A stretch of 64,000 nt of DNA from the NCBI GenBank assembly GCA_949292105.1, contig CASEYK010000028.1, positions 5,246-69,245 on the forward strand, given 5' to 3'. This stretch comes from an uncultured bacterium. Its GTDB lineage: Bacteria; Bacillota_I; Bacilli_A; RFN20; CAG-826. The position numbers and the translations under genes were made by a program. The notes beneath the pieces are model-generated. The model saw nothing but the letters and a program-made list of their open reading frames with translations, was not told the DNA's origin and did no database searches. Below are positions 10,681 through 60,082 of the stretch, piece after piece; positions within the stretch are counted from its first letter, which is position 1, and each line of letters starts with the position of its first letter.

Positions 10681-10692
10681 GAGGAACTGAAA

Positions 10693-16800: not shown

Positions 16801-16998
16801 TCAAGTATAGGCATACCAATTTATGTTCATAAAACAAGTACTGTTTCATTAACTGCTTCTGGTGGTTCGTATGGTCTTATGGGGAATAATGGTTCAGAAG
16901 GTAAAACACAATCAATAACTGGTGTTTCTGGCAGTTCTGGCGATTCATTCATTGCCATTTACGATTTAGAGTATCCACTTTATTGTGTTATGATGTAA
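13879..16998 (+). CDS. Large surface protein. It has an N-terminal signal/anchor, a Big_2-like Ig domain, and a C-terminal Gly/Asn/Asp-rich low-complexity tail built from GGNGG repeats.
   Basis: Hydrophobic N-terminus. A TYTILPQA...GSECEIDISVQNVSKTIEVKVV segment looks like a Big_2 domain. Residues about 770-960 are GGNGGNGGDGG-type repeats. The start overlaps the upstream stop (ATGA). Confidence 0.55.
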   Translation: MKTIYKIVATLLILCISAIAVIPLTLYFLDDNEIEEIVVDDDVMEVRPSRTYTILPQALDEKGSLSSNYEFEFSSSNPNILTFESENSGTFTVSSKASVGSECEIDISVQNVSKTIEVKVVESQNYFLDIDLSNNGENISSQDLFFGNEYKLNFTIYPNLVSLLDCQISVLDSEMNIINNLIEITKDSSNYYLKMVGAGTGFIKIQYNGDFFLIPFISSFKEKVLNDALNITNQNYTRNDINSLTTILIDMDISSIDLQELSSFSSLEYITVVNDKVIDFKNYNSSNFDIVVRTHSGSLQIYDLYEKSEIDNKLLSRIYPASPITFNLTVVYYYTNPNTSILEYEVMYYKQDGTEQLLDMPSCFSGQLYETVPNNEYWYYTSNYSEQVEGIDTIQQPRVKLFGKFIGSQFNLSFIVGNEVFKEMTISHNDLITAEDLEELNRNNIEEFYFKNNGYYSRFYDWVNKEGDVVDINREIANISSDTEGSEVSYYARMKREFEVQTLVSEEAYYTEDSKREFIVCYKETFTGLNDVKVSRDNIALEGWYFNNSIKITPDSIFDFDVDYNQTIILEAKWFGAFSYIYEFTAYVLDDISEATLDLSNYTDSNHTHYELLVKDNIQSLNIIGSSNGTYVNTNIVIAERQSDLELTLENVNILNNLDVMTIDATQVKDHYIYLNIIGENNFVSSGRSFGSDKFMVNIPNLFVSGSDAIISFTSTSPYGENGMLVDNLTLTHASMSVIGSSNISYTEGQKNGGIGLKANNEIKMLDGAKLEVRGGDGADGKDYGNITAQAGANDTASGANGSNGESGINGENGGNGGDAIVANSLHIENKSTLIAQAGNGGNGGDGASGGRGGNGAKGSTASKGGDGGNGGNGGNGGDAGNAGFSLNTNILKAIDNGARIDLYEPTPGKGGNGGNGGNGGNGGDGGDKKTFIGIPYGDRGVKGIGGNGGDGGDAGQNGQYKLAITINDYESSSSSIGIPIYVHKTSTVSLTASGGSYGLMGNNGSEGKTQSITGVSGSSGDSFIAIYDLEYPLYCVMM
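16195..16765 (+). repeat. Degenerate tandem 15-nt repeats (ggt ggc aat ggc ggc, and variants) encoding the GGNGG tail.
   Basis: Visible by eye. The antisense PPLPPLPP ORF at 16386-16634 is the mirror image of this repeat. Confidence 0.7.
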
Positions 16999-17032
16999 AA
17001 CAATATAAATAAAATTTGGCGAGGTGTTTTCA

Positions 17033-20000
17033 ATGAAAAAGGTTTTTATCAGTTATGGTCGTGACAGTTTAAGTTTTTTTCCTACTCGCGTGAGCGAAGA
17101 TTTGATAAAAACGGAGCGGTTTGAGACCATTATCGATCAAAGGATGGAATGTGCTGTTAAGTTTGATGATTGGATTCAAGATAGAATTGATGAGAGCGAC
17201 CTCATTATCTTTTTCATGACAAAACATTCAACAAGGCGCCACGACAGCGTATGCTTGGATGAAATCGCATATGCTCGTAGTAAATCTATTCAAATCATTC
17301 CTGTTTTACTCGAAGAGTGCTCTCCGCCCCTTCTTGTGTCACGCATCAATTGGTTAGATGCTCGCGATTGTATAAATGTTGCTAATAAAACCATTATTGA
17401 AAGCCGATACAATGAAAGACTTAATCAAATAATAAAAGCTCTTGACGATGGTGGATTCGATGACGAACTCATTGGAAATGCTTTAAATTTGAAGAAAAAA
17501 CTTCAACCTTTTGACTTTTCTTTAATTTTGTCAGAAAGAAATGATTTTTTCACCGAAAGGCATGAATTTACTAAATTTTATAATGAATGGATTGAAAGTG
17601 ATAATTCGGTGCTTTGGATTGCCGCTAACGCTGGAAGTGGAAAATCGGTTTTATGTTCACATCTCGCCAACGAAGATGTAAGAGTAAAAGGTATTCACTT
17701 CTGTAAAAATTTTAGTACTGATACTGGTCTTGCTAGACGCATCATGACCCATTTAGCCTTCAATATTTTTACGCAGAACGAGCAGTACGGAAAGTCGCTA
17801 GAAGAGAATGTGGATTTTTCTGCATTTGTCAAAAATGATACAACAAAAGTTTTTTACGATTTATTTGTCAAATGTACAGCCCCTTTAGAGCCTAGCGAAC
17901 CATATATTTTGATTATTGATGGCTTAGATGAAGCTCCTTCGAGAGAAATTACTGAATTGAGTAAAGCCTTGTTTGAAAATCGAAATTTAATTCCAAAGTG
18001 GTTAAAATTTATTATTACTTCAAGGCCAGATTTGACTATCCTCCAATCCCTCTCTTTCCTTAGAAAATATGATTTGTTAAATAACAAAGACGATATATTG
18101 GCCTATATTCAACAAATATGTCTTGTCAAAAATTTAAATTTATCACAGCAAGATGTCGATCAAATCGTCGATTTGAGTCAAGGTAATTATCTCTATGTTA
18201 AAACTCTTTTTGATTTGAATGGCGGTTCCACAATTGATTTAGAAACATTGAAGAGTGGTATGTCTTCCATTTTTTCTATTAGTTTTTCGAAATTTTTTAG
18301 TGAAGAAGAATTTGTTCAATTGCCAAGACAATTGCTCCAAATTTTAGTTGCTGCGAAAGATTCGCTAGATGTCGAGACCATTTCTGAAATCATGGGTATC
18401 GGTCATTACGAATTAAACAATTTACTGAAAAAATTTGGGACATTACTCAATAGCAGCGATGCAAAAATCACTCTTTATCACAAGGCACTTGGCGATTGGC
18501 TTACCAGCCAAGATAATATCAATTACTTTGTTTCTTCAATTGAAGGTGATAAACAGATTTGCTTGTGGATTAAAAATAATCCATTTGGCTTCATGTTTAA
18601 TGACTATATTCGCAAATATGGTTTTGACCACCTCTTTAATACAGGCGATTTTGAGACTATCTTCTCTGCCTTAAAAAATACTAATCAGGAAACAGATGAT
18701 TCTCTTTGCTTGACGCTTGTACATAACGCTGTTCCTAATAAATATTCAGCGATTGCCAAGTTCATCTATGAAGGATTTAAAAATGATCCGAAAATTTTCC
18801 CAATTGCTAAAATAATAAGATATTTTGTCGAATATGGATGTTTTGCGTCCATGAGAAGCTTTTTTGCCAATTTTTTCATTCGCCAAAATAAAGAAATTGA
18901 ATGGATTATTCCTTATTCGGATTTAATCACCAACCGAATGCAGATTAAGATTGAAGAAGCGTATAAAACGCCTGAAGATTTGTTTAAGAATGCTCCAGAT
19001 GATGTTTATGCTGAATATTTTTATTATCGTGCCGAAGCATCGAGAGAACTCGGCAAATATAAAGAAGCCTTGAAACTTTATGAAAAAGCGGCGGAAACTT
19101 CTAGTAGTCCGGATCGATTTGCTCATTATATGTCGCTCATTAAAATTGCTGACATTTATTTTGTGTTTGGCGATAATCCAAAAGCGTTAGAAAAAGCCAA
19201 TAGTGTAGTGTTGGCTGATACCAATTTTGAAGGCAATTTTGCAAAAGAGCGAGTTCTTGGGCATATTTATAGAAGCATGGGCAATAGGCATGAAGCCATA
19301 CTGCATTACGAAAACGCATTAAACATCGCTAAAGACATGGGCAAAATGTACGCGATTGTTGAATCATACAATTCGCTTGCCACGGTTCTTGATGATGATA
19401 CCGCTGTTGAATATTTGTTAAAAGTTATTTCGCTCTGCAAAGCGCATGATTATAAATTAGAATTAGGAAAAGCTTATAGCGAACTAGGTAATATTTATCT
19501 TAAGAGAAGTGATATTAATAATGCCATCGAGTGCGGATTGAACGCTAAGCACAACCAAGAAACCGTCAAATATTTAGGCGGAATTTGTCAAGCGCGACGC
19601 CTTTTGATTCGATGTTATCTCCAGCTTCATGATTATCAAAAAGCCTTGCCCTTAGCTCTTTCAAATATCGAGGATATGCTCAATTCTCATTCGAGCCTAA
19701 AAACAGTGCTCAATGATATTCGCTTATATCATTTTTGCCAAAACGGGCTAGGCATATATGAACCTTTTGACGCTAATTTGTTTGCTCTTAAAGACAAAAT
19801 AACAGATGAATGGTTTTATCGTGAATTAGAAAAAAATACGATTGTCAACGCGGTTTTGAAAGAATTTAATTCGAGACCATCTTCTGATTATAAAATCGGA
19901 TACCACAATCAAAACCATACTGTTTCAGTCAATGGAGCCAAATATATTTTAAGAATTCCAGTGGAAGATTTTGATACAGTTGATATTCATGTATTTAATG

Positions 20001-20845
20001 AAAATGATGTGCTCAATTTCTTGGATGAAATTAACTTATCTGTCGATCATCCTCATTTCATTGGCAATGGCATTTTGAATCATACCATTGTGTCTGTTCA
20101 CTCCTTTATTGAAGGAAAACAGTTGCGAGCAACTATTTCCGATAATAAAGAATTAACTAATAATTTTGTGCTTCAATTCGCCCAAATTATGGCCACTTTC
20201 CATTCTTGTCGAACATGTCTTCCAAGCAATGATAACTTATATAGCACAACCAAATCGTTTTATGCCTATGATTATTCTTTTATTTCGAATCTTGTTAACA
20301 AGTGGTTTTTAAGATATCAAAATATGTACATTAAAATGGGATTTCCCACTGATATTAACCTCTTGCTAGCCAGTCATAAAGATGAAATTTTTGAGAACAT
20401 CACTTGTCTAAATCACTGCGATTTGCATCGTGGCAATGTGCTATTAAAAGACGATGGAAAATTTGCCATCATCGATTGGGAACTAACCCAATTTACTGAT
20501 CCTTTATACGACGTAGCCATTCATTTACACAAAATGTTTTATTCTGAAGAACAAGAAAAAATTTTCCTCGATGAATATTTTTCTCACTTTCAATACGATC
20601 GAGAATCTGCTACGCGACAGATTGAAAATTATCGAAGACTAGAAGAAGTTAAAAGTTGTGTTATCGATATAATTAGACTCGTACATGAATTTGGCACGAT
20701 GTCTAAAGAATCATATTTAAATGCTTGTGAAAAATACATCATGAAATTGAAAGTGCTAGAGAAGGAACAAGAGCAATATAAATCACCTTTTAAAAATAAA
20801 GAATCACTTTATCAATTCATCGAGAAAAAGTGGATTTTCTCTTAA
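17033..20845 (+). CDS. TIR - STAND (NACHT/NB-ARC-like) NTPase - TPR - APH/choline-kinase-like phosphotransferase fusion protein.
   Basis: - TIR: KKVFISYGRDS ... VCLDEIAYA gives the TIR FISY box and conserved Glu.
- NTPase: AANAGSGKSV is Walker A, ILIIDGLDEA is Walker B, and KFIITSRPD is the STAND TTR/sensor-1 motif.
- TPR: TPR-like helical repeats with ...YYRAEASRELGKYKEALKLYEKA...
- Kinase: HCDLHRGNVLL...AIIDWELTQFTDPLYDVA matches the APH Brenner HxDxxxxN and DWE motifs, and YILRIP gives the N-lobe Lys.
- Start: placed at ATG 17033, which follows GGCGAGGTG. Confidence 0.75.
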   Translation: MKKVFISYGRDSLSFFPTRVSEDLIKTERFETIIDQRMECAVKFDDWIQDRIDESDLIIFFMTKHSTRRHDSVCLDEIAYARSKSIQIIPVLLEECSPPLLVSRINWLDARDCINVANKTIIESRYNERLNQIIKALDDGGFDDELIGNALNLKKKLQPFDFSLILSERNDFFTERHEFTKFYNEWIESDNSVLWIAANAGSGKSVLCSHLANEDVRVKGIHFCKNFSTDTGLARRIMTHLAFNIFTQNEQYGKSLEENVDFSAFVKNDTTKVFYDLFVKCTAPLEPSEPYILIIDGLDEAPSREITELSKALFENRNLIPKWLKFIITSRPDLTILQSLSFLRKYDLLNNKDDILAYIQQICLVKNLNLSQQDVDQIVDLSQGNYLYVKTLFDLNGGSTIDLETLKSGMSSIFSISFSKFFSEEEFVQLPRQLLQILVAAKDSLDVETISEIMGIGHYELNNLLKKFGTLLNSSDAKITLYHKALGDWLTSQDNINYFVSSIEGDKQICLWIKNNPFGFMFNDYIRKYGFDHLFNTGDFETIFSALKNTNQETDDSLCLTLVHNAVPNKYSAIAKFIYEGFKNDPKIFPIAKIIRYFVEYGCFASMRSFFANFFIRQNKEIEWIIPYSDLITNRMQIKIEEAYKTPEDLFKNAPDDVYAEYFYYRAEASRELGKYKEALKLYEKAAETSSSPDRFAHYMSLIKIADIYFVFGDNPKALEKANSVVLADTNFEGNFAKERVLGHIYRSMGNRHEAILHYENALNIAKDMGKMYAIVESYNSLATVLDDDTAVEYLLKVISLCKAHDYKLELGKAYSELGNIYLKRSDINNAIECGLNAKHNQETVKYLGGICQARRLLIRCYLQLHDYQKALPLALSNIEDMLNSHSSLKTVLNDIRLYHFCQNGLGIYEPFDANLFALKDKITDEWFYRELEKNTIVNAVLKEFNSRPSSDYKIGYHNQNHTVSVNGAKYILRIPVEDFDTVDIHVFNENDVLNFLDEINLSVDHPHFIGNGILNHTIVSVHSFIEGKQLRATISDNKELTNNFVLQFAQIMATFHSCRTCLPSNDNLYSTTKSFYAYDYSFISNLVNKWFLRYQNMYIKMGFPTDINLLLASHKDEIFENITCLNHCDLHRGNVLLKDDGKFAIIDWELTQFTDPLYDVAIHLHKMFYSEEQEKIFLDEYFSHFQYDRESATRQIENYRRLEEVKSCVIDIIRLVHEFGTMSKESYLNACEKYIMKLKVLEKEQEQYKSPFKNKESLYQFIEKKWIFS

Positions 20846-20934: not shown

Positions 20935-21855
20935 ATGGACAGAAAAGTGTTCGAACATTATAGAGCATTTTATAATATGGTTCTATCCACGACTATATTA
21001 AGTAATAAATCCAACGAAGAATTTGAAAAAAACGCTTCAAATATCATCGATTTTATTGGCGAATCGTTTAAGTTAGATTCTTCTTTAGTGGCAGAATGCA
21101 AAAAAATCATCTTAGATGATTTAACAATTTTAAGTATTATGGCGGATTGTAACGCTCTTTATAGTACTCGCACTCTCGGCTCAAAAATAAATGATGCAGA
21201 TGTGCTGCTTGATATAAAGTGTGATGTTTTAACTAAACTCAATTCTCTTAGCAATGACGCTATGATGCAAAAAATGGGAGTGAATCAAAGCTGGTTTGAC
21301 TATCACTTTTTTAAATCTTATCAGCCTAATGTGCGATATAACAAAATCAATATCGCCAGCAGCGTTGGCAATTTAATTTGTACGAAACAAGTCGGCATCA
21401 TGAAAGCGCTCGGCATCGGCACCAAACAGGATTATAGCGAAGCGATTAAACGCTTTTTACAAGCTGCTCTTTGGGGCGATGTTGCAAGTTTAAGATATTT
21501 ATCGTATGTCTATACTTTGATTGGCAATCAAGAAAAAGCGTGTATTTTTAATGAAATAAGCGAGTTAAGCAGTCAATATTTGCGATCGGGTATTACCGAA
21601 TTATCCGATGAAGTGAAAAAACAATACCACGAACAAGCCATTTGTTACTATGCGATTATATCTTCAATTAGGCAAGACATCATTTTGCGATTTCAAGTTT
21701 TTAACATCGATTTTTCTTTTGTAGAAGTCATTTTAAAAGATGATATTAGTTTTAAAAAAGCGATGAAATATATCAACGAATACAAAAAAGAGCAGTGGAA
21801 AGAAGAAACAAATTCTTCGCTTGAAGCAGATTCTAGAATAGGTTTTATCCTATAG
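20935..21855 (+). CDS. Hypothetical protein (306 aa).
   Basis: ORF preceded by a GGAG RBS, lying between the STAND gene and the TraG-like ATPase. Confidence 0.45.
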   Translation: MDRKVFEHYRAFYNMVLSTTILSNKSNEEFEKNASNIIDFIGESFKLDSSLVAECKKIILDDLTILSIMADCNALYSTRTLGSKINDADVLLDIKCDVLTKLNSLSNDAMMQKMGVNQSWFDYHFFKSYQPNVRYNKINIASSVGNLICTKQVGIMKALGIGTKQDYSEAIKRFLQAALWGDVASLRYLSYVYTLIGNQEKACIFNEISELSSQYLRSGITELSDEVKKQYHEQAICYYAIISSIRQDIILRFQVFNIDFSFVEVILKDDISFKKAMKYINEYKKEQWKEETNSSLEADSRIGFIL

Positions 21856-21873
21856 AAACAGGAGAAATGAAAT

Positions 21874-23733
21874 ATGGCGAAAATGTCGTTGAGCGAAAAA
21901 ATTAAAAACGAATATCAAGAAAAATATTTAGAAGTCTCTAAAAAGATTACATATTTGGATTTGGATGAAACAGACAATGTTGAAGTGGTCATGTACAAAG
22001 ATTTGCCAAAGACTGTTGTCAAAGGTTTTCCTGTGGCTAGCGATTTCATTGATAAAGAGGGAAATATTTATTCAACAAAAAGCTTCTTGAAACTATCAGC
22101 AGAAAAGAAAAAAGAATGCGAACTGCGATATTTCTTTTTACCTAAAAATCATGAATTGTATGTTGGGGCGACGGGTAGTGGAAAGACGACGGGATGTGTT
22201 GTGCCGCAGTTAAGAGCCATCGCTTCTAAAAAAAATAAGTCCAGCCTTTTTATTACTGATCCAAAGGGTGAATTATTTGATAAAAATGCCGATTTTCTTC
22301 AAAAACAGGGCTATAAAACCTTCGTTTTAAATTTCAAAAACACTAGCCGTTCTGATCGCTGGAGTGTTTTTGAAGATTTGTATAGCATTAAAATTAAAAC
22401 TCTTTCGATTGGCAAAGGAATGAAATATAAGACTGGCATTCCATCTGCTTCGTTAGAATTGTATAGCGATATAAGCGATTTTAATTCGGAAAATTATATC
22501 GAATATGATGGCAAAGCCTTTGCCAACGGTAATGACTTTGATGAATATGTTCGGATTCAAAAAGATTTGATTGAAGCCGAACTGGATTCATCGCTAAATG
22601 AATTAGCTAATACAATGATTGTTGTTCAATCTCGAAATGATAAGACTTGGGAATATGGCGCAATTGATTTATTAAAGGGCATTATTCGCTGTATGCTTAC
22701 TGATTTAGTTAATCCCAAAAGTGGATTTACAAAAGACATGCTCAATTTGAACAATTTACAATTTTATTATACAACGCTCAAAAATACTCTCACTGATTCA
22801 GAATTTTCTGGAAGTAGTCAAAACGCTAGATTCAACAATCATCCACTTCTGGTCGATAAAGATGTTCGAACAAAAGCTTTATTGTCGGCCGCGTTGAATA
22901 ATTCCCCTAATACAATGAGAAATTATTGTGGTGTTTTTGATAATTCGATGACTGATTGGTTTCAAGCCCACATTTATGCATTGACCAATGGTAATAATAT
23001 TGATATCGATAACATTCCTGATGATCAGCCGTATGCCATTTTTCTCATTACACGCGATTATGAAAAAAATGACTATCGCATCGCTGGCATTTTTATCGAC
23101 TATGTTTATCGACATTTGATTATGCGCGCCGAGTGTAGCGAGCGCCCGCGCGAATTCCATTTTTTGCTCGATGAATTTGGGAATGTTCCAAAAATAAAAG
23201 ATTTTGAAAATAAAATTGCTACGGCTAGAAGCCGCAACATTTGGTTCCATCTTTATTTGCAATCATATTTTCAACTTGACGCTATTTACACAGCAGATGT
23301 CGCAACAATTATACGAGATAATTGTAGTTCACAAATCTTTTTAGGAGCTCAAAATCGAGCGACTAAAGAAGACTTTTCGAAACAATGTGGTATGCATTAT
23401 GTACCATCGTTTTCTAGCTATCTAAATAATGAATCACAGCCTAACTTGGTTGAGGTTCCTCTTGTTCCCGTCAGTTCGCTAGATTTAATCGAGCCGGGAG
23501 AAATATATACCAAAAGAACATATAAGCCTGTCATGGTTGCGCAGTTTATTCGAAGCTATGTCTGCGGTGAATGTGGTGCATACGAAGATCATCAAGACGT
23601 TGAAGGTTTAAAAACATGTGTGCCTCATGAGCACGGCGGATTTAATGGTCCTCAATACATTTGGCCCAAACTGCAAGAAATGCATACTAAGAAAAAGAAG
23701 AAAATTGATCTAGATGATATCTTAGGAGATTAA
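21874..23733 (+). CDS. TraG/VirD4-family (type IV coupling protein-like) ATPase. It is soluble, with no N-terminal TM helices, and has a C-terminal Cys-rich Zn-ribbon-like tail.
   Basis: Sequence VGATGSGKTTGCVVPQL is Walker A + the PnLL box. HFLLDEFGNV is Walker B. ARSRNIWFHLYLQSYFQLDAIY matches the T4CP RSrGi...QslsQL block. C-terminal CGECG...CVPHEHGG. Confidence 0.6.
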   Translation: MAKMSLSEKIKNEYQEKYLEVSKKITYLDLDETDNVEVVMYKDLPKTVVKGFPVASDFIDKEGNIYSTKSFLKLSAEKKKECELRYFFLPKNHELYVGATGSGKTTGCVVPQLRAIASKKNKSSLFITDPKGELFDKNADFLQKQGYKTFVLNFKNTSRSDRWSVFEDLYSIKIKTLSIGKGMKYKTGIPSASLELYSDISDFNSENYIEYDGKAFANGNDFDEYVRIQKDLIEAELDSSLNELANTMIVVQSRNDKTWEYGAIDLLKGIIRCMLTDLVNPKSGFTKDMLNLNNLQFYYTTLKNTLTDSEFSGSSQNARFNNHPLLVDKDVRTKALLSAALNNSPNTMRNYCGVFDNSMTDWFQAHIYALTNGNNIDIDNIPDDQPYAIFLITRDYEKNDYRIAGIFIDYVYRHLIMRAECSERPREFHFLLDEFGNVPKIKDFENKIATARSRNIWFHLYLQSYFQLDAIYTADVATIIRDNCSSQIFLGAQNRATKEDFSKQCGMHYVPSFSSYLNNESQPNLVEVPLVPVSSLDLIEPGEIYTKRTYKPVMVAQFIRSYVCGECGAYEDHQDVEGLKTCVPHEHGGFNGPQYIWPKLQEMHTKKKKKIDLDDILGD

Positions 23734-23738
23734 ACAAT

Positions 23739-25916
23739 ATGCTCGCGGTTGATATACTTATTACTCTTTGTCTCATTGTTTTACTTTTCTACGCGCTATA
23801 TGTAGTGACGAAATTGTGTGTTTTAAAACGCGGCGATAAGTTGTCTTATCTCAAAGGTTTTAAAAAAGGAAAGTTTGCTTTCATCTACTTTATTGCTATT
23901 TTTCTCTATTGGATTGGATATTATCAAATCAATAACAAATTAGATCAATCGTTTATAAGCGCGATTAATGACACCATTGATTTGGTTGTTTTAAAAATCA
24001 AGATATCAGGTATTTATTCATATATGGAAACCAATGCGTATTATGCCGCTTCCATGTATATTCTTTTTTGTCTTGTTGTCTTGAATGTCTTTTTATTTGC
24101 TTTTGCGCTGTTTGGACAAAGTATTGTTAATTTCTTTAAAAGAGTTTATTACACGCATGTTGCGAAAAAAATTTATGTTGTTATCGGATTTAATAAGAGC
24201 AATGAATCGGTGCTCAAATCGATTAAAAGTAAAAAATATAATGTTATTTTATTCGCAGAAGCTGGCAAGAACTATTTAGATTTCACATATATAAACAAAA
24301 TTTGCTATATCAAATATTTTGATAACACTGATTTTTATGATAAATTGTCCAAACTTTTTAAGAATTTTACAAATCGTAGCGTAGAAGTAATTATTAATAC
24401 TGGCAACGATGAAAAAAATATTATTCTCACCGAACAAATCAGCAACATCATTCTTGATGATAAGTTGACAAAATATACTTCTGATGTCGATTGTGGCCTT
24501 CGCGTCTATGTCTTTGGTGAGCCACAAAATGTTTCATCTTTTTCCCATTATGTTAAAAAAACAAATGGATGCGTTCATTATTTGAATAAATACAAAATTG
24601 TTGCGAATGATTTTATCGACAAATATCCTCTTACCCAATTTATGAATGATGATGAAATTGATTATAGTAGTGCAACGATTAAAGAAGATGTCGATCTCAA
24701 TGTTATTCTTATCGGATACGGGAAAACAAATCAGCAAATATTCCTCTCTTCCGTGGCCATCAATCAATTTATTACTTTCGACAGAAATCATCGTCTTGTC
24801 GATAAACCAGTTAATTATTTTATTTATGATAAAGAAATTTCTAATAACGAAAAAAACTTAAATCATGCTTTTTATCGCTTTAAAAGCGAATTGGATACAG
24901 ATCAAGATAAATATTTGCCACTCCCTCCTTTCCCTGCCAATGATAATTTCTTAAAACTAGACATTAATGATAATCATTTTTATGAAATGATTAAAAGCAA
25001 TATCCACCCGCAAGGTAGACGAAAAGCGTTTAATTACATCGTTATTGCTTTCGGTACCGATTTAGAAAATCTCGATTTAGCTGAGAAAATATGTTCTAAG
25101 TTAAAAGAGTGGGGATTATTCAATAAAACCAAAGTTTTTCTCAAAATTCGCAACGGCGAATTAGCCACACAAGTCGTCAATAAAGAATTTATATCGACGA
25201 GCGGATTCTATACTTTTGGCAATGAGAGCGAAGTTGTCTATGATATCGATAAAATTGTGACAGAAAAAATTGAATTGATGGCAATGGATCGACATCTTTC
25301 ATATAACATCAAAAGCAATATGAATTTAGAAACAGCCAAGCAAGTAATTGAAGAAGCGACGAAGAGTTGGTACGCGATGCATCAAATTCAAAGAGAAAGC
25401 AACATTTACGCGATTTTAAGTATCCGTTCCAAACTCCAGTTGCTCGGGTTTGATTATGCTCCAGTTAACAGTCCTCTTGGCGATGAAAGTGCAGCATATC
25501 AAAAGGCTTATGAAAAAGACGATCCGATTGTCTATGACGACACAAGAGAAGATGTCAAAGGTAAAAAAACCATTGTTTATACAAATGAACGAGTGAGCCA
25601 TAGCGTAAGAGAAAATCTAGCTATCTTGGAGCATCAAAGATGGAATGCATACATGATTTCCAAAGGAAATATTCCTTCAACTATTGAACAAATTAAAAAC
25701 AATGATTCAAAACGTCTAGATTTGAGAAGGCATGGCAATATTACTACTTTTGAAGGCTTAATTGAATTTAGAAAAATAATGGCCGAAGTCAAGCATCTCT
25801 CAGAAGAAGAAACAGATGTTATCCGTTATGACTATCAAATAATGGATGATTTAGTTTGGCTATTGCACAAAAACGGCTATAAGATTGTCAAAAAAGAGGA
25901 GAAAAAAGATGAGTGA
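23739..25916 (+). CDS. Polytopic membrane protein with two Rossmann/RCK-like cytoplasmic domains and a C-terminal RyR domain (paralog A).
   Basis: Four N-terminal hydrophobic helices. KIYVVIGFNKSNESVLKSI and VILIGYGKTNQQIF are GxGxxG-like. LEHQRWNAYMISKGNIP...RHGNITTFEGL matches the RyR HExW..GW.yg...H.c...eL pattern. It is a paralog of 26999-29383. Confidence 0.55.
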   Translation: MLAVDILITLCLIVLLFYALYVVTKLCVLKRGDKLSYLKGFKKGKFAFIYFIAIFLYWIGYYQINNKLDQSFISAINDTIDLVVLKIKISGIYSYMETNAYYAASMYILFCLVVLNVFLFAFALFGQSIVNFFKRVYYTHVAKKIYVVIGFNKSNESVLKSIKSKKYNVILFAEAGKNYLDFTYINKICYIKYFDNTDFYDKLSKLFKNFTNRSVEVIINTGNDEKNIILTEQISNIILDDKLTKYTSDVDCGLRVYVFGEPQNVSSFSHYVKKTNGCVHYLNKYKIVANDFIDKYPLTQFMNDDEIDYSSATIKEDVDLNVILIGYGKTNQQIFLSSVAINQFITFDRNHRLVDKPVNYFIYDKEISNNEKNLNHAFYRFKSELDTDQDKYLPLPPFPANDNFLKLDINDNHFYEMIKSNIHPQGRRKAFNYIVIAFGTDLENLDLAEKICSKLKEWGLFNKTKVFLKIRNGELATQVVNKEFISTSGFYTFGNESEVVYDIDKIVTEKIELMAMDRHLSYNIKSNMNLETAKQVIEEATKSWYAMHQIQRESNIYAILSIRSKLQLLGFDYAPVNSPLGDESAAYQKAYEKDDPIVYDDTREDVKGKKTIVYTNERVSHSVRENLAILEHQRWNAYMISKGNIPSTIEQIKNNDSKRLDLRRHGNITTFEGLIEFRKIMAEVKHLSEEETDVIRYDYQIMDDLVWLLHKNGYKIVKKEEKKDE

Positions 25917-26451
25917 AAATTATACGGATATAAAAGATAAATTGTTCAAGGATAGAACTATCGTCATCTGCGGTCCAATCGACAACGCTAAAGCGACATC
26001 AATTATTTTTTCTCTTTTAACTTTTGATTCGGAGAGCAATGACGAAATTCAATTATTCATTAGTTCTCTGGGTGGGGAATATCTCGACTCGCTTGCTATC
26101 TACGACACGATTAAAAGAATCAAATCGCCAATATCTGCAACTTGTATTGGATTTGCCAACGGATATGCTGCATTAATTTTGGCGTGCTGTAGTAAAGGGC
26201 ATCGATACGCTTTAAAACATAGTCAAATTAACTTTGAACAACCATATGGTGTAATTAATCAAGGCGTCAATCAAGAAACAGAAATACGCATTAGCGCCAA
26301 AGAAGCAGCAATCGAAAGAGAAGTGTTTGAAAAAATGCTTTCTGAACACACCGGTCAACCAGTCGAAAAAATTCATAAAGATTTAGAAGCCGGCATCACA
26401 TTGAATGTTGAAGAAGCGCTAACTTATGGCGTTATTGACAAAATCATTTAA
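25909..26451 (+). CDS. ClpP-family protein that is catalytically inactive (ClpR-like). It lacks the N-terminal axial loop and has a Lys/Arg-rich N-terminal extension.
   Basis: Collinear with ClpP (IYDTIKRIKSPISATCIGF...). The Ser position reads GFANGYAALIL (Ser to Gly), the His position reads NFEQP (His to Glu), and the Asp position reads LEAGITL. The start was set to the ATG at 25909, which follows a GAGGAG RBS. Confidence 0.7.
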   Translation: MSENYTDIKDKLFKDRTIVICGPIDNAKATSIIFSLLTFDSESNDEIQLFISSLGGEYLDSLAIYDTIKRIKSPISATCIGFANGYAALILACCSKGHRYALKHSQINFEQPYGVINQGVNQETEIRISAKEAAIEREVFEKMLSEHTGQPVEKIHKDLEAGITLNVEEALTYGVIDKII

Positions 26452-26466
26452 GTTGAGGAAATAGTT

Positions 26467-26988
26467 ATGGCCAAAGATATGAGAATTATCCTCATTAGTG
26501 GAGAAATTGATGAAAATGTTGCAATGGATGTCATTTTGCGTCTTTTGCTCTTAGACAAGCAATCCCACACTGAAGAAATTGTTATGTATATTAACTCGAG
26601 CGGCGGAAGTATTTTAAGCGGACTTGCCATATACGATGTCATTAATTACATTCAAGCTCCTGTCAGCACAGTATGCTTTGGCATGGCGGCATCGATGGGT
26701 GCCTTCTTATTATCTTGCGGTCAAAAGGGAAGAAGATTTGCTCTGGCGCATAGCCGCATTCTCATCCATCAACCATTGATTTATTCTTCTTCACCAGTTT
26801 TAAAAGCCCAATCATCTCTTGCTAGAATGGCTAAGCAAATTGAAAATAGCCGTCTTGAGTTAGAGAAGATTATGGCTAAAAATTTATCAAAAAGTTTTGA
26901 AGAGTTGCACCGCGACTGCGAGCGCGATAACTGGATGAGTGCTTTTGAAGCCAAAGAATATGGAATTATCGACAAAGTTTTAGAATAG
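26467..26988 (+). CDS. ClpP-family serine peptidase with an intact Ser-His-Asp triad and the roughly 22 N-terminal residues (axial gating loop) missing.
   Basis: Sequence GMAASMGAFLL (Ser), RILIHQPL (His), ERDNWMSAFEAKEYGIIDKV (Asp). It aligns end-to-end with canonical ClpP from position about 25 onward. A GAGG RBS lies 8 nt upstream. Confidence 0.75.
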   Translation: MAKDMRIILISGEIDENVAMDVILRLLLLDKQSHTEEIVMYINSSGGSILSGLAIYDVINYIQAPVSTVCFGMAASMGAFLLSCGQKGRRFALAHSRILIHQPLIYSSSPVLKAQSSLARMAKQIENSRLELEKIMAKNLSKSFEELHRDCERDNWMSAFEAKEYGIIDKVLE

Positions 26989-26998
26989 AGGTTTATTT

Positions 26999-29383
26999 AT
27001 GAATTGCATTTTTGATGTAGCGTTAAGCGGTGGTTGGCACTTTGCTATTGGAGTTGTTCTTGGCATCATTATTTTAGCTATTGCTTACATTATCTTAATG
27101 GTTGCTTACATCAAAACACGACAAAAATATTCAGGCAACAAATATTTGGTAGAAGTCTTGTATATCGTTGCTGTTCTCATCTTTAGTTTTGCTATTAAAT
27201 TAACAATTATCTCTATCGTGCTTCCAAAAAATATTGAAAGCGGCGTTACAGCCTTTTTCTATGCTTTGTATAACGGATTTGGAGGTTTGGTATTTGAAGG
27301 GTTGAGCGAGGATATTGGTATTATCTCAAGTGCTACTCTTCAATATTTATATACTGGCAGTTCTATTTTAGCTGCTATTATTTTTGTTAGCGTTTTAGCA
27401 ACACGTTTTAACTATGAGATATATAGTTACTTCTCGTTAGTTATTAATCGTTGCATTTTAAAAATACGTAAGAATAAAGATATTTATATCTTTAAATGTG
27501 TTACTAGCGATTCTCTTATATTGGCTAATTCAATTGTAGAAACATATCGTACAAAGGATGTTAAAAATAAAAAATGTTTAATTATCTTCACTGGTCAAAA
27601 TCTGCCTCCTTTTAATCGAAACGATGAGACGATGAAAGAGATTATGGCCAAAGGATACATTTATTGGCCTTATTCCTTATCACACGACAAAGAAAGAAAT
27701 AGATCAGTTTTATCCAAATTACATTTGTATGTTGATAATGAGCACTTTCAAAACAAAACTAATAAAACTTTTAGCAAAAACTATCCTTCAATTCATATTT
27801 TTGCTCTTGACAATAAAGACACAGTGGGAAAAGAGACAAACAACGCTGATGATATTTTTGAAGAGATTCAAATGATGGTTAAAGAATTTCATCGAAAGAA
27901 CAAATATTATCATGTTAATTTATATGTGCTGACGAACAACTATCTCAATTACATTTTCTACGACAAAAGGCTTGACGAAATATGCGGATTAAGACGCAGC
28001 GATAAAAATGGCGAATCCCAAACAATTCAAGAAAAGGCGATTCAAGCTGAAGCAGGAAATTTAAGACAGTATTTTTCCATTCATGTTCTCAATGAAGCAA
28101 ATTTAGTTTCTCGCGATTTTATCAATAAGAAAATCCAAGCATTTGAAAATGGTGGGATAGAAATGGTTGAAGAGCTTGACGGTGTAAGAGCTTATACAAA
28201 TACATATCGTGTATTAACGCTTGGTTTTGGCTATACCGGCCAGCAAGCAACTTTGCAAGCTTATATTAACTCAGCTAATCTTTCGACAAATTTTGAAATT
28301 GATGGATTTGAAGCAGACATTTTTGACACGAAAATGGATTCAATCAGCGGTATTTTTGCCCTTCAGCATCCTTTAATCGTTTGTTGCAATAACGATACCT
28401 CAGAAGAATTAGAAAAGAAAAAGCAGAGAATTATAAGTGAAAAAGCCAATTCTTATTTATCAAGAGGAATAAAAGATAATAAATGCTTTAAACTTCCTGT
28501 TTTCATTTTTCATAATGCCTCCTGTTTTAATCAAGATTTTGTTAAATTTTTGTACAAAGATGGCAACCATGTTTTAGCCAAAAAATACAATCTCATTATT
28601 ATTGCGCTCGGTGATGATGAGATAAATATTAGAGCTGCTAATGCGATTATTAATCGATTAAATCACGAAAGTGTTACAATAGAACAGCACAAGATTGTTG
28701 CTGTTAATATTATCAATCAAAAGAATATTTGCCGCCTCGATGAAGTAAAAAATAGTGATTATGTCCATGTCATCGCTTTTGGCTGCCGCGAAACAATTTA
28801 TTCATATGATTACATCATTAGAGAAGATGCATTTATGGAATATAATTTCCGCTATGGCGTTATCTTTGATGAAAAAAATCATATTTTAGGACCATCTAGT
28901 GGAGATAGTTTGTTAAATTCATTTGTCAAAAAGGTTATTTCAAATAAAAAACTATCTCTGAATAGTCAAGATTTGGATGATATTAATCAAACCCTCACTG
29001 ATAAATTTCGCACAAATGCAGATTATATCGTTGAGAAAAAATGGCAAATCAGTCTTTTCCAAAAACAGTCGAATGTTTTTGCCGCTTTATTCAAACCGAT
29101 AATGGCTTCTTTCATAAGGAGTTATCCTTCAGAAGATGAATTTAATAATAGTGCGGATTATCTTGTTGATAAATTTACATTCTTATCGTGCGTTGAACAT
29201 GAACGATGGTCAAGATTTTTGATAGCCAATGGTTGGGTTTATAGCCAAACAAGAATTGATTCAGCAAGAGAACACAACTGTTTGACAACTTTTTTTGAAC
29301 TTAATGCAACAGATAGGATAAATGATTTAATCAATGTCATTGTCGCTTTAAGTTTGGCAAAAGAAGGGATGAATAAAAAATGA
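26999..29383 (+). CDS. Polytopic membrane protein with Rossmann/RCK-like domains and a C-terminal RyR domain (paralog B).
   Basis: Five N-terminal hydrophobic helices. YRVLTLGFGYTGQQATL is GxGxxG-like. VEHERWSRFLIANGWVYSQ...REHNCLTTFFELNATDR is a clear RyR-domain signature. Confidence 0.55.
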   Translation: MNCIFDVALSGGWHFAIGVVLGIIILAIAYIILMVAYIKTRQKYSGNKYLVEVLYIVAVLIFSFAIKLTIISIVLPKNIESGVTAFFYALYNGFGGLVFEGLSEDIGIISSATLQYLYTGSSILAAIIFVSVLATRFNYEIYSYFSLVINRCILKIRKNKDIYIFKCVTSDSLILANSIVETYRTKDVKNKKCLIIFTGQNLPPFNRNDETMKEIMAKGYIYWPYSLSHDKERNRSVLSKLHLYVDNEHFQNKTNKTFSKNYPSIHIFALDNKDTVGKETNNADDIFEEIQMMVKEFHRKNKYYHVNLYVLTNNYLNYIFYDKRLDEICGLRRSDKNGESQTIQEKAIQAEAGNLRQYFSIHVLNEANLVSRDFINKKIQAFENGGIEMVEELDGVRAYTNTYRVLTLGFGYTGQQATLQAYINSANLSTNFEIDGFEADIFDTKMDSISGIFALQHPLIVCCNNDTSEELEKKKQRIISEKANSYLSRGIKDNKCFKLPVFIFHNASCFNQDFVKFLYKDGNHVLAKKYNLIIIALGDDEINIRAANAIINRLNHESVTIEQHKIVAVNIINQKNICRLDEVKNSDYVHVIAFGCRETIYSYDYIIREDAFMEYNFRYGVIFDEKNHILGPSSGDSLLNSFVKKVISNKKLSLNSQDLDDINQTLTDKFRTNADYIVEKKWQISLFQKQSNVFAALFKPIMASFIRSYPSEDEFNNSADYLVDKFTFLSCVEHERWSRFLIANGWVYSQTRIDSAREHNCLTTFFELNATDRINDLINVIVALSLAKEGMNKK

Positions 29384-30330
29384 GCGCTGAATTAAAAGTC
29401 TATTTTTTATTCGATGAAAATGAGAATTTGACTTTTGAAGAAATTCTAAAAAGTTTAAACAATTATTCAACTGAGGATATTTTTAATGCTATTAATATTT
29501 TGATTGGCAACAGATCATTAAAACTTGATGAAAATGGTTATTTTTCGCGAAATCAGCAAAACAAAGACGCCCAAAATAAATTTGTCCAAAAATTTTCTTC
29601 TCAAGGCATCACGATGTTTAAAAACAATTTATTTAGAACTGATTTGACCATTTTATCAGCTATTTATACTGGCGCGCCCATTGCCAAAAGCCTTCTTGAA
29701 AAAATAATCAAAGTTGATGCTAGGTCATTTCAATACTCTTTAAGTAAGTTGTGCAAATACGATTTAATAAAAGAATTCAATGGTCATTATTACTGTCGGC
29801 TTGATAAAAGTGTTATCTGTGATATCGCAAGTGCGTTCGATGAGCAAGTTGAAGGCGATAACGAAAATAATATTGATAGTATAAGTCCTCACATACAAAA
29901 ATTATTGAACTTGCTCAGCGATTTCCATAATGGAAAGAAAAAAATCAACCATGGTATCTTCAAAGCTGATATCGTTTTGTATTATAAAAACGGAGAAAAT
30001 ACTAGTCAAAGAGGTATTCGAGTTGATTCAAATGCGACAATTGCTGAAATAATTCGATATTATTTAATTGCTGAATGGGGAGAAAAAGAAACTTGTAATT
30101 TTTTTCATAAGTCGGATCTTGATACAAAACAGTTAGTAGAATCTAAAAATAATTATTTTTTAAGCGGTAGCGCATACTTTTTCGATGATGATAATGATGA
30201 ATTATTGGAACTGCATTGGGACGACAAGATTTTTGGTTCTAATGAACGGCTCGATTATCTTTTGCTACGAAATACCCATCCAATAATTCAACTCGATATT
30301 AAAGATATAGGAGAATGGACGGCAAAATGA
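29380..30330 (+). CDS. Hypothetical protein (316 aa).
   Basis: ORF whose start overlaps the upstream stop (ATGA). Confidence 0.4.
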   Translation: MSAELKVYFLFDENENLTFEEILKSLNNYSTEDIFNAINILIGNRSLKLDENGYFSRNQQNKDAQNKFVQKFSSQGITMFKNNLFRTDLTILSAIYTGAPIAKSLLEKIIKVDARSFQYSLSKLCKYDLIKEFNGHYYCRLDKSVICDIASAFDEQVEGDNENNIDSISPHIQKLLNLLSDFHNGKKKINHGIFKADIVLYYKNGENTSQRGIRVDSNATIAEIIRYYLIAEWGEKETCNFFHKSDLDTKQLVESKNNYFLSGSAYFFDDDNDELLELHWDDKIFGSNERLDYLLLRNTHPIIQLDIKDIGEWTAK

Positions 30331-30791
30331 AAAACATAAAAGAACAATTTAGACAATTTTTAAAAAGAAACAAACTTAATTTTGAAGAATCGGACGAAAA
30401 TTTTATTTTGCAGTGGACTTCAGAGGAAAACAGAGATCTTGATTCAACTTGCATGATTGAATTCGACTTAGATAGTAAAAGGATTTTTGTTCATTTTTTA
30501 TTTGCATTTACAATTGATGATTCTTTTTTACTTGAAACTGCGGTCGCTGTTTGCATGGTAAATAATTGCCTCTACGAAGGCAATTTTGAAATTATATTTG
30601 AAAATAATTCGGTGCTATTTAGAAATTGTTACCGATATAATGAGCAAGTTGATGACGATTTGTTTGAAACTGTTATATATAATGGTTTAAAAACATATGA
30701 TCCGTTTGTTTTAAAAATTAAAGAAGTATCTAACGGCGAATGCGGCATTAAAGAATTAGATGATTTTTTAAATGCTCCAAGCGAAGATTAG
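30315..30791 (+). CDS. Hypothetical protein (158 aa).
   Basis: ORF overlapping the upstream gene by 16 nt. It is translationally coupled. Confidence 0.4.
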   Translation: MDGKMKNIKEQFRQFLKRNKLNFEESDENFILQWTSEENRDLDSTCMIEFDLDSKRIFVHFLFAFTIDDSFLLETAVAVCMVNNCLYEGNFEIIFENNSVLFRNCYRYNEQVDDDLFETVIYNGLKTYDPFVLKIKEVSNGECGIKELDDFLNAPSED

Positions 30792-30794
30792 AAT

Positions 30795-32132
30795 ATGATT
30801 TCAAAGAGAAGTACTTGTTTTAAAAAAATCAATCCAAAACTTTTTTTGGATTATTCTTCTCTTTCTTCGAATAAATATTTATTTCCTTATAGTGGATCGT
30901 ATTTGCTAGCTAGGAAAATTTTCGACAATTTTGATAGATCTATAGATAGTGAAAAAATCCCTAGTATGCTCGAGAATATGCAAATAGCACTTAGCTTAAA
31001 TAATCCCTGCGCAATGTATAATACTGGCCTTCTTTTTGAACTAGGCATTGGCGTTCGCAAAGACGAAAAGATTGCTTTTGAACTATTCGAAGAAGCCAAA
31101 TTATTCAATAATTGTGATGCCGAATATGAAATAGCACTCAATTACTTTGATGGTACGCACTACGAGATAGATGAAAATAGAGGCATGGCTATTTTGTATA
31201 AACTATCGATTAGAGGACATCCAAACTCTTGTGGATTGTTGGGCGATTTGCTTTCTAAAAAGAATAATCCTAACAGCGTAGACATTGATGAGGTTTTTCA
31301 ACATTATTGCAATGCGGCTAGAGGCGGACTAGAAAAATACGCATATCGAGCTGCCTTCATATATTATTTTTTGCCTGCTGTTAATGCTGGATATGATCAG
31401 TCGATACTAATTGAACAACTTGCACCTAAGCTTTTTGAATTAGATGATAGTGAAGGATTATTTCTTAAAGGAGTATTTTCTCTTGGTGGCAAAAATTATC
31501 AAAAAGATATAGCGTTAGCTGAACAACTGTTGATTCAAAGTGCTGAAAAAGGTTGTGTTTACGCCCAAGTCTTTCTTGGTCAATTTTATCGAACTAATGA
31601 CTTTGACTTTCCAACCGATATCGAAAAATCGATCAAATATTTAAAAATGGCTGCAAAACAGAAAGATAATAGCGCAATTTTGAGCTTGGGAATTTATTAT
31701 TTAAAGTCAGACAATAACGATAAGAAAAAAGCATATGACTATTTTATGAGTTTCGAAGATGATTGTACCTTCTCCTATGAAAAATATTTTTCTTACAACT
31801 CAATATTCGGTGTTGGACACATCGATTATGTCGAGGAAGCTGTTTCATTTTACGAAAAAGAAGCAAACAACGGGAATGACGATGCAGCGTTTATTCTAGG
31901 CGCTATTTTTTATAATATGTGTATCTTCGATAAAGCATTCTCGTGTTTAAAAAGATTTAAAAAAAGCAACCATCCAAAAGGTTTGTTTTATTTGAGCTTA
32001 TGCTATTTTTATGGTTTAGGTATAAAAAAGAATTTATCTCCTGCAAAAAAATATTGTTCACAAGCCGTCATAGCTGGGAACAATTTTGCACAAGATTTGC
32101 TCAATATGATTGAAAATGAAATTAATGATTAA
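30795..32132 (+). CDS. Sel1/TPR-like repeat protein.
   Basis: Repeated A..lG..Y..G.GV.kD...A..w...AA-type units (AMYNTGLLFELGIGVRKDEKIAFELFEEAA, AQVFLGQFYRTNDF...SIKYLKMAA, and others). Confidence 0.55.
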   Translation: MISKRSTCFKKINPKLFLDYSSLSSNKYLFPYSGSYLLARKIFDNFDRSIDSEKIPSMLENMQIALSLNNPCAMYNTGLLFELGIGVRKDEKIAFELFEEAKLFNNCDAEYEIALNYFDGTHYEIDENRGMAILYKLSIRGHPNSCGLLGDLLSKKNNPNSVDIDEVFQHYCNAARGGLEKYAYRAAFIYYFLPAVNAGYDQSILIEQLAPKLFELDDSEGLFLKGVFSLGGKNYQKDIALAEQLLIQSAEKGCVYAQVFLGQFYRTNDFDFPTDIEKSIKYLKMAAKQKDNSAILSLGIYYLKSDNNDKKKAYDYFMSFEDDCTFSYEKYFSYNSIFGVGHIDYVEEAVSFYEKEANNGNDDAAFILGAIFYNMCIFDKAFSCLKRFKKSNHPKGLFYLSLCYFYGLGIKKNLSPAKKYCSQAVIAGNNFAQDLLNMIENEIND

Positions 32133-59901: not shown

Positions 59902-59931
59902 TTCATTAATTTTTTATTTTGTATATAATTA

Positions 59932-60050
59932 TTGTGCTTCAGGGTAAGGTGAAATTCCTTAATCGGCGGTATACCCCGCGAGTCTTAATGGCTGAACTTG
60001 TGCAATTCAAGTGGCGACAGTAAAGTCTGGATGAGAGAAGTTTTTTTCTT
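59932..60050 (+). ncRNA. Candidate cobalamin (B12) riboswitch.
   Basis: Sequence GGTGAAATTCC...GCGGTATACCCCGCGAG...AAGTCTGGATGAGAG matches cobalamin-riboswitch core elements (GGTGaAAnTCC and a B12-box-like AAGTCnGGA). It lies in the 5' leader of the ECF S-component gene, after a TATAAT at about 59924. Confidence 0.5.
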
Positions 60051-60082
60051 GCCCAAGCAGAAAGTAAAGGTGGTTATTCTTA

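Follow-up and report, generated by a model that had tools for sequence, protein, structure and literature searches.

A modular operon with a gate-less ClpR/ClpP pair, RCK/RyR-type membrane proteins and a VirD4-like ATPase in an uncultured bacterium

An active ClpP protease encoded beside a paralog without a catalytic triad is known from the ClpP/ClpR cores of cyanobacteria and plastids (e.g., ClpP3/ClpR) and from ClpP1P2 of Mycobacterium and Listeria, which is a hetero-complex. A pair of this kind is also present in a 64,000-nucleotide stretch of DNA from an uncultured bacterium (contig CASEYK010000028.1, positions 5,246 to 69,245; the whole stretch is referred to as the window), where a triad-less paralog (ClpR) and an intact one (ClpP2) lie between two genes for predicted membrane proteins, A and B. 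An earlier note on this DNA had taken the four genes for a symmetrical, self-contained cassette. The present analysis suggests, with a probability of about 0.4, that the cassette is the output section of a longer operon, reaching from a gene termed p306 to a Sel1-repeat gene, and that the whole is a rare, undescribed modular system of the conflict type, for which a mechanism is proposed below.

Several other described systems resemble parts of this operon. The gating N-terminus missing from the present pair is also lost in N-terminally deleted ClpP and in ClpP opened by acyldepsipeptides (ADEP). Its loss should leave the axial pore open and abolish productive coupling to ClpX/ClpA, and N-terminally deleted ClpP degrades peptides and unfolded chains without an ATPase. 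In Escherichia coli ClpP, the IGF/LGF loops are received by a hydrophobic pocket made of Y60, Y62, F82, I90, M92, F112, and L114. A ClpP-fold peptidase in one operon with membrane proteins and with no AAA+ partner is found among the ClpP-class proteases of the NfeD/STOPP type, which are accompanied by stomatin. The gating rings closest in fold to A are those of the RCK-gated proteins GsuK, TrkA, KtrA, and CASTOR. The ATPase core, the all-alpha insertion, and the TraG-D_C domain of type IV coupling proteins (T4CPs; VirD4/TraG/TrwB and CD1115) recur in the ATPase of the operon.

Repeats of the ryanodine receptor (RyR) type are present in animal RyR (repeat 1-2), in a protein of Bacteroides thetaiotaomicron (3nrt), and in phage RyDEP proteins, and the single-repeat proteins of the RyR/R12 class dimerise into a two-fold module. 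In RyDEP, the residues H75, W78, H100, and D117 hold and cleave the cyclic ADP-ribose (cADPR) species 2'/3'cADPR (PMC13232231); binding of cADPR isomers by an RyR domain is known from phage proteins only (PMC13232231). In Thoeris, as at some of the present loci, a TIR gene lies beside a membrane protein with a nucleotide-binding domain. A survey of 29 Thoeris types (bioRxiv 10.64898/2025.12.03.692087) includes, in its searchable parts, TM-Macro effectors (type II, with a transmembrane (TM) part), a caspase-like protease (type IV), and an "ion channel" effector (type X), which gives a precedent for a signal-controlled protease or pore as output; RyR, TrkA, or ClpP effectors are absent from its searchable text and tables.

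Each domain of the present operon (ClpP/ClpR, RCK, R12, T4CP, TIR) thus has known relatives, but hallmarks of the parent families are missing, namely the gating N-terminus, the K+ filter, the T4CP anchor and type IV secretion system (T4SS), and the two-gene Thoeris layout.

A recurrent hub and its modules

The recurrent hub of the system consists of a 300-aa Sel1-like protein (p306 in the window) and a soluble VirD4/TraG-like P-loop ATPase. Three kinds of modules are gained and lost around it: the gate-less ClpR/ClpP pair, one or two proteins of the A/B type, and the small adaptor-like proteins p316, p158, and Sel1. The features of the operon and of the gene before it are as follows, with related loci designated by L numbers.

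17024..20845, + strand: TIR-NACHT(NPHP3_N)-TPR-APH-kinase STAND protein, 1273 aa (Pfam TIR_2 48.6 bits, NPHP3_N 74.7, APH 66.1, and TPR)
20935..21855, + strand: p306, Sel1-like repeat protein (match to PDB 6ork, E 1e-7; no Pfam family)
21874..23733, + strand: soluble VirD4/TraG/TrwB-like P-loop ATPase (T4CP), 619 aa (by Pfam, NCBIfam, and TrwB alignment)
23739..25916, + strand: gene A, 725 aa; 4-5 TM helices precede two RCK domains in tandem and a helical region, and the C-terminus is RyR-like and divergent
25909..26451, + strand: ClpR-like dead ClpP paralog, 180 aa, without the N-terminal hairpin and with G85/E110/G162 at the triad positions
26467..26988, + strand: ClpP2, 173 aa, with the triad S76/H101/D154 and without hairpin and helix A
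26999..29383, + strand: gene B, 794 aa; ~4 TM helices are followed by two domains of the Rossmann/RCK type and, C-terminally, by a single RyR (R12-type) repeat
29183..29368, + strand: RyR repeat in residues 729-790 of B, where H734, W737, H759, and D776 are invariant
29380..30330, + strand: p316, weak winged-helix signal; its first 4 nt lie within gene B; homologues in L003 and L007
30315..30791, + strand: p158, a small protein that recurs with the A family and the hub
30795..32132, + strand: Sel1-repeat protein of 445 aa (Pfam Sel1 66.2 bits), encoded at the 3' end of the operon

The order A, dead ClpP, intact ClpP, B given by the earlier note was borne out, with all four open reading frames (ORFs) on the + strand where it had placed them. 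Throughout 20935-32132 (p306, VirD4-like ATPase, A, ClpR, ClpP2, B, p316, p158, Sel1), the intergenic gaps range from -15 to +18 nt, and the TIR-STAND gene ends 89 nt 5' of p306. TM helices are predicted in A and B only among the operon proteins. The operon lies in a single long + strand island (1-32132 of the window, GC content ~0.32), beyond which, from 32140 on, the genes are ordinary ones (MatE, SDR, flavodoxin, Ogt, heliorhodopsin). A scan for promoters and terminators was uninformative, with counts at or below the level of shuffled sequence.

The p306 family is rare: a search of 1.84 billion representatives at E<=1e-30 gave 47 clusters. A p306 gene stands beside the T4CP gene in 10/10 T4CP loci of the GTDB survey and also in L091-94, L095, L096, L100, and L101. 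Ten loci carry both T4CP and p306 no more than 10 kb from a gene of the A or B family, and p306 alone is found at the edge of L070. The two genes adjoin ClpR/ClpP in seven of the nine ClpR lineages (window/L003, L007, L091-94, L095, L096/97, L100, and L101/102). As for the other two lineages, L070 has p306 at a distance of 9.5 kb, and neither gene was seen in the 7.5-kb contig of L099, which reads ClpR-ClpP-Sel1-394.

Gene order shows how the modules are exchanged. L091-94 read p306-T4CP-A(549)-ClpR-ClpP-B(941). In L095, a T4CP-p306 block is divergent from ClpR-ClpP-B(807), and A is missing; in L100, the same block is divergent from ClpR-ClpP-311. Neither A nor B is present in L096/97 (p306-T4CP-ClpR-ClpP-323aa-p158-Sel1), where the 323-aa gene takes the position of p316. 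In L101/102, p306-T4CP-ClpR-ClpP faces a free-standing RyR protein of 93 aa and a protein of the RCK/EHxRW type, and L070 reads A-HAD-ClpR-ClpP-B-362-TIR/TPR. The hub is also found with A and B but no Clp genes (L002, L009, L013) or with A only (L015, L026, L028, L033, L060). Homologues of p158 occur in eight loci of the GTDB survey (L002, L003, L007, L030, L051, L056, L065, L070) and in L096, and Sel1 proteins lie 3' of ClpR/ClpP in L007, L096, and L099. A survey of A loci (79 loci, up to 10 kb of flank each) yielded Clp genes in three (L003, L007, L070). The associations with T4CP, B, and Clp lie in one major clade of the A tree. HAD-family phosphatase genes were observed in L070 (12490-13695, between A and ClpR) and L096 (6520-7164, just 5' of p306), and their products could act on a nucleotide signal.

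These loci bear directly on the model of the earlier note, in which a self-contained, ATPase-independent, membrane-docked ClpP/ClpR peptidase is governed directly by A and B. The four genes do co-occur elsewhere: three separate lineages share the order A-ClpR-ClpP-B (window/L003/L007, L091-94, and L070), and an RyR-family protein adjoins the pair in 6-7 of the nine ClpRP lineages. Both Clp proteins lack gating loops, which, by the literature on deleted ClpP, would permit ATPase-free degradation. However, L096/97 retains ClpR/ClpP, the ATPase, and Sel1 without A or B, L095 lacks A, A is Clp-less in 76 of the 79 surveyed loci, and a conserved ATPase gene is adjacent in seven of the nine lineages. 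The cassette is thus not self-contained, since the pair tracks p306 and T4CP, and independence from an ATPase is an unsafe assumption; the model as a whole is unlikely. Its premise that no ATPase partner is encoded nearby stands as far as AAA+ genes with an IGF loop are concerned, but a conserved P-loop ATPase of the VirD4 type lies just 5' of A. From the lack of A and B in L096 and of A in L095, and from the mostly Clp-less occurrence of A, it follows that selection acts on a larger, modular operon (20935-32132, with 17024 as a possible start) and not on the symmetrical cassette of four genes.

The ClpR/ClpP2 pair and the VirD4-like ATPase

Both Clp proteins belong to the Pfam family CLP_protease (PF00574, MEROPS S14; ClpR 156.1 bits, ClpP2 200.1 bits, cut-off 20.2) and fall short of the 308.6 cut-off of the NCBIfam equivalog TIGR00493 (138.5 and 182.7). 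Alignment to solved ClpPs shows that the triad of ClpR is replaced throughout (S to G85, H to E110, D to G162) and that of ClpP2 is intact (S76, H101, D154), as the earlier note had read them. The closest solved structures to ClpR are ordinary bacterial ClpPs. The window contains no other ClpP.

Neither protein has the N-terminal axial hairpin of ClpP. Residue 3 of ClpR aligns with residue 14 of solved ClpPs, so that the hairpin is lost and helix A kept, whereas residues 4-6 of ClpP2 align with 26-28, which removes both. The statement that both proteins start at about residue 25 therefore fits ClpP2 (~26-27) but not ClpR (~13-14, helix A retained). The truncation itself is not an annotation artefact. 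That of ClpP2 is real because its frame is open for only five codons 5' of the ATG. For ClpR, the most likely start is the ATG at position 25909, which follows a GAGGAG site and yields a protein of 180 aa; an alternative TTG start would add only 8 lysine-rich residues. Short N-termini recur in all homologues (171-182 aa).

The ClpR subfamily is represented by nine clusters (P0127-P0135) with 50-93% identity and a length of ~180 aa, all of them without the triad, and each ClpR examined is followed by a ClpP partner with an intact triad (171-181 aa). The protein of the window is thus a ClpR in the usual sense, i.e., a conserved paralog that has lost its triad and is encoded beside an active ClpP, and the retention of a dead paralog at this level of identity indicates that it is under selection. 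A scan of metagenomes with a ClpR pattern returned generic ClpPs only (35-39% identity). A 4-5 residue insertion after QP.G is common to the ClpR and ClpP2 groups, and their C-termini are short. In the pocket for IGF/LGF loops, the alignment shows V/S/T among the ClpP2 proteins and Q/K among the ClpR proteins at position Y60, and position 82 is non-aromatic in ClpR; the remaining positions are conservatively kept.

The reading of the pair as a couple of dead and live paralogs, heteromeric in appearance and without axial gating loops, is consistent with these alignments. By likeness to ClpP/ClpR cores, a mixed ClpR/ClpP2 ring would be the obvious expectation. Compared with cyanobacterial and plastid ClpR and with ClpP1P2, the present pair differs in the loss of hairpins (and of helix A in ClpP2), in the insertion after QP.G, the short C-termini, and NCBIfam ClpP scores below cut-off, and in the linked ATPase, which is VirD4-like and not ClpC or ClpX. 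The present ClpR likely arose independently of cyanobacterial ClpR. Deleted or ADEP-opened ClpP is a laboratory or drug-induced state of a housekeeping protein, whereas the truncation here is natural, extends over the subfamily, and is paired with a dead partner. The NfeD proteases are membrane-anchored and belong to another, S14/S49-like branch; ClpR and ClpP2 are soluble and near to canonical ClpP.

The ATPase of the hub exceeds the Pfam cut-offs of T4SS-DNA_transf (103.9 bits), TraG-D_C (85.9), and TrwB_AAD_bind (70.1), and reaches 202 bits with the NCBIfam CD1115 family (cut-off 250). It aligns with the soluble domain of TrwB and conserves the Walker A motif GATGSGKT. In contrast to type IV coupling proteins, it has no membrane anchor (no TM helix was predicted) and no T4SS or relaxase neighbours, the corresponding Pfam families being absent from the gene tables of the examined loci. 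Identity to plasmid CD1115/VirD4-like proteins is 25-28% over <=52% of the length.

A rival explanation is a decayed mobile element, in which the VirD4-like gene would be a leftover coupling protein, the Clp proteins phage-type prohead proteases, and the adjacency of A and B incidental. The best named relatives of the ATPase are indeed CD1115-family transfer proteins of conjugative Firmicute plasmids, and ClpP-fold proteases do occur in phage head maturation, with a match of 69 bits to the NCBIfam model Clp_rel_HeadMat. Prophage head proteases were nevertheless rejected as an identity for the Clp genes, which score 203/153 bits against true ClpP and 69/40 against head maturation, below the cut-off of 120. 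Genes for relaxase, VirB4, integrase, capsid, and portal proteins were found in none of ~15 loci. Searches with tblastn gave no match for A among 72,556 plasmids and none for A or B among 50,697 phages; IMG/VR contained one match for A and none for p306. The ATPase has lost its anchor, yet its Walker motifs are retained and its sequence is strongly conserved from lineage to lineage, and the dead ClpR subfamily is conserved as well. The decayed-element explanation is therefore highly improbable.

Other ATPases were noted at these and related loci. The ClpB-like ATPase at 2155 of the window was rejected as a partner of the Clp pair, as it lies 20 kb away, resembles DolB and PDC-M37B, and is absent at other loci; it carries VGG in place of the VGF loop of the ClpC motif. 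In L051, L056, and L065, a gene for a ~680-aa AAA+ ATPase of the CbbX/SpoVK type and two p158-like small genes precede A, an arrangement that forms a second ATPase-plus-adaptor set attached to the A family. ClpB/ClpC-like genes of 857-859 aa near B homologues in L001 and L095 probably reflect housekeeping synteny.

The membrane proteins A and B

The earlier note had called A and B clear paralogs. Their homology is real over the C-terminal ~450 aa, where the family profiles align (hhalign 98.6%, E 6e-16, A 279-726 versus B 357-808), but direct similarity is marginal (BLASTP E 5e-4 and 2e-3). By sequence, the two proteins are distant homologues with a common Rossmann/RCK domain and C-terminal module, not close paralogs.

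In A, a TM part (residues 1-140) is followed by RCK domains at ~144-300 and ~318-500, a helical region, and the RyR-like C-terminus. An AlphaFold2 model built from 80 homologues (pLDDT 93) places two Rossmann domains between 4-5 TM helices and a helical C-terminus, and full-length GsuK ranks first in a Foldseek search with it. The tandem Rossmann/RCK fold behind a membrane domain that the earlier note proposed for A is thus supported by fold comparison and model, and TM helices are predicted in both proteins. Pfam TrkA_N is practically undetected in the A family (1/29 members, E 0.025). A model of B from 6 sequences (pLDDT 55) was too poor and was not used. No K+ selectivity-filter motif of the TVGYG type was found by regular expression in the TM part of any of 106 family members, the sole filter-like match in the first 200 residues being the Rossmann TLGFG of the split B ORF in L007. 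The TM part of A matches MrpB (E 0.006) and the N-terminus of exopolysaccharide (EPS) sugar transferases (E 4e-4) weakly and has no clear relative. Compared with GsuK, MthK, TrkA/KtrA, and CASTOR, A lacks the K+ selectivity filter and a TM domain of clear descent, and it carries an extra RyR-type domain fused at the C-terminus.

The RyR assignment of B is strong at the family level. The B family profile matches the RyR repeats of the PDB at E 1.2e-21, the 85-aa C-terminal fragment alone finds 6uhi (2.3e-11), RyR2 890-931 (1e-7), and 3nrt (1.4e-4), and Pfam RyR (PF02026) is detected in 7/10 family members (best E 4.4e-7), B of the window itself scoring 23.5 bits (cut-off 27.4). The putative ligand set H734, W737, H759, and D776 is invariant in 10 sequences, and its spacing (+3/+25/+42) is identical to that of RyDEP H75/W78/H100/D117 (PMC13232231). 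Unlike RyDEP, a small phage anti-defence protein, the repeat of B is the C-terminal domain of a large host-encoded RCK membrane protein. The corresponding region of A is far more divergent: EHQRW at 631-635 (H632, W635), H665, and D698 are conserved, with insertions relative to the RyR set, and the region is linked to RyR only through the hhalign alignment to B. The claim of an RyR domain in both proteins accordingly holds well for B and, for A, only by way of B. In L007, a relative with 68% identity, B is split at 9096-11497 into ORFs of 301 and 498 aa, which may represent a frameshift or a genuine division between TM/RCK1 and RCK2/RyR.

The A family comprises at least 288 protein clusters and occurs in at least 245 GTDB genomes, mostly metagenome-assembled genomes of Christensenellales-type Clostridia, and is conserved over its full length (36-58% identity). 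The B family is rare: among 5.8 billion proteins it forms six clusters. Of 87 surveyed loci, 65 have a single family member and 19 have a second paralog (B, c7, or c10, each carrying EHxRW). The system is assigned to Christensenellales-like Clostridia.

This distribution is also compatible with a housekeeping role, in which A and B would be nucleotide-gated channels or transport regulators of Christensenellales, and the ATPase, Sel1 proteins, and ClpRP would serve their turnover or assembly without any part in conflict. The wide occurrence and full-length conservation of A, its genus-level synteny among housekeeping genes, and a fold nearest to the gating rings of K+ channels and transporters point in this direction. 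The missing filter motif, the patchy and modular partner genes, the hypervariable paralog pairs, the enrichment of TIR genes of many architectures near A, and the position of the window copy in an island with TIR-STAND and DolB-like genes point away from it, and the housekeeping explanation appears somewhat unlikely.

TIR genes, defence context and a proposed mechanism

An iterative search seeded with the TIR domain of a neighbouring gene detected 20 TIR genes within 10 kb in 19 of the 79 A loci, 16 of them within 3 kb of A and five directly adjacent; nine of ten genes checked passed Pfam TIR_2. They represent at least six architectures (TIR-methyltransferase, TIR alone, TIR-TPR, TIR-NACHT, TIR-LRR, and TIR-PP2C), are scattered over the entire A tree, and have a shorter distance to A than other neighbours (p 7e-4 counted by gene, 0.03 after collapsing to 14 lineages). 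The TIR gene of the window lies 2.9 kb 5' of A, and its product carries a motif of the catalytic-Glu type (VCLDEI, residues 76-81). This TIR-STAND protein is a candidate sensor and signal generator. Probably, the operon of 20935-32132 works together with this gene. The arrangement differs from Thoeris in that the operon is not a two-gene set of TIR and effector, most A and hub loci are TIR-less, and the TIR protein of the window is a STAND NTPase, not ThsB. A TIR-methyltransferase fusion (~434 aa) is conserved next to A in L011, L016, L020, L036, and L046, and in three of these five loci a double-GNAT-like protein lies between the two.

A defence-like context, as proposed in the earlier note, is apparent: the 32-kb island of the operon also holds the TIR-NACHT-TPR-kinase gene and a gene for a DolB-like ATPase. 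In PADLOC-DB v2.0.0, A, ClpR, ClpP2, B, p306, p316, p158, and Sel1 had no match, and the T4CP had a weak P-loop match to mad8 only. No defence system combining T4CP with ClpP or RyR with RCK was found in the literature searched. The view that the combination is not a described system thus agrees with both sources.

Other genes of the window were noted in passing. The single-AAA_2 ClpB-like ATPase (2155-4344) matches PADLOC DolB (2.8e-22) and PDC-M37B (1.8e-30); with an overlapping 349-aa ORF of no known family on its 5' side (the two spanning 1116-4344), it may form a Dodola-like pair that opens the island. At 6196-12882, a radical-SAM activase-like gene (Fer4_12, 8046-8612) lies amid three Pfam-less ORFs of 617, 700, and 729 aa, all co-directional, and the group could be another unrecognised system. 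Just ahead of the TIR-STAND gene, a Pfam-less ORF of 1039 aa (13879-16998) shows weak similarity (5.8e-6) to an LRR_5 protein encoded in L070 (7781-9919) immediately 5' of A. Further downstream are a heliorhodopsin gene (37425-38213, Pfam 322 bits), in a genome that seems to be that of a gut Clostridia member, and a flavin mononucleotide (FMN) riboswitch (Rfam RF00050, 92.9 bits) at 59931-60046, ahead of the ORF at 59998-60786.

The mechanism proposed for the modular conflict system may be outlined as follows. A and B would be ligand-gated membrane effectors, whose single RyR repeats would pair (A with B, or each with itself) to form a pocket for an adenine nucleotide or ADP-ribose (ADPR). A TIR-made signal of the ADPR type, or a ligand of the ATP/NAD type on the RCK ring, would switch the membrane domain to another state. 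ClpR and ClpP2 would form a mixed, permanently open-pored peptidase unable to use a normal AAA+ partner; the VirD4-like hexameric ATPase may serve or control this peptidase, and Sel1 proteins may select its substrate. After an infection or the entry of DNA, this would end in arrested growth or in the breakdown of invader proteins. The full joint form, in which A/B are channels gated through an RyR/R12 pocket by TIR-made ADP-ribose and ClpR/ClpP2 is the first ClpP chamber run by an ATPase of the VirD4/FtsK-HerA superfamily with Sel1 adaptors, is quite unlikely.

Several observations weigh against the conflict system as proposed. The links between its components are those of genomic association alone, and all function is inferred from them. 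The docking-pocket residues of ClpP2 are largely retained except Y60, which makes an AAA+ partner encoded elsewhere possible, and a comparison of T4CPs between Clp-carrying and Clp-less loci revealed no insertion or tail specific to Clp, so that no docking surface is marked. Pfam RyR was detected in 0/29 members of the A family, and the A profile has no RyR match in the PDB. In ~65 of 84 loci A stands solo within 10 kb, often amid housekeeping genes (L9, RsmI, ABC transporters) and with apparently vertical inheritance, and a solo, stable A is as compatible with a channel of normal physiology as with an immune effector. TIR genes are missing from most T4CP-containing loci, and a TIR-STAND gene lies beside the module only in the closest relatives (window, L003, L007). 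The silence of PADLOC fits novelty and, equally, a role outside defence.

In the least exciting reading, A represents a large unannotated family of RCK-RyR membrane proteins, with at least 288 clusters, no Pfam model, and a confident structural model. If the proposed system is real, it would be a new defence or signalling architecture in a poorly studied uncultured gut lineage and would break the rule that only AAA+ partners drive ClpP chambers. It would also offer a small bacterial system for the old question of whether cyclic ADP-ribose is read directly by RyR-type domains and coupled by them to a membrane conductance. From the association of TIR and RyR, a class of host-side targets is predicted which phage RyDEP proteins may imitate or for which they may compete. 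If A and B read a TIR-made ADP-ribose, they would be a prokaryotic counterpart, and possibly an ancestor, of the disputed animal axis from cADPR to the ryanodine receptor.

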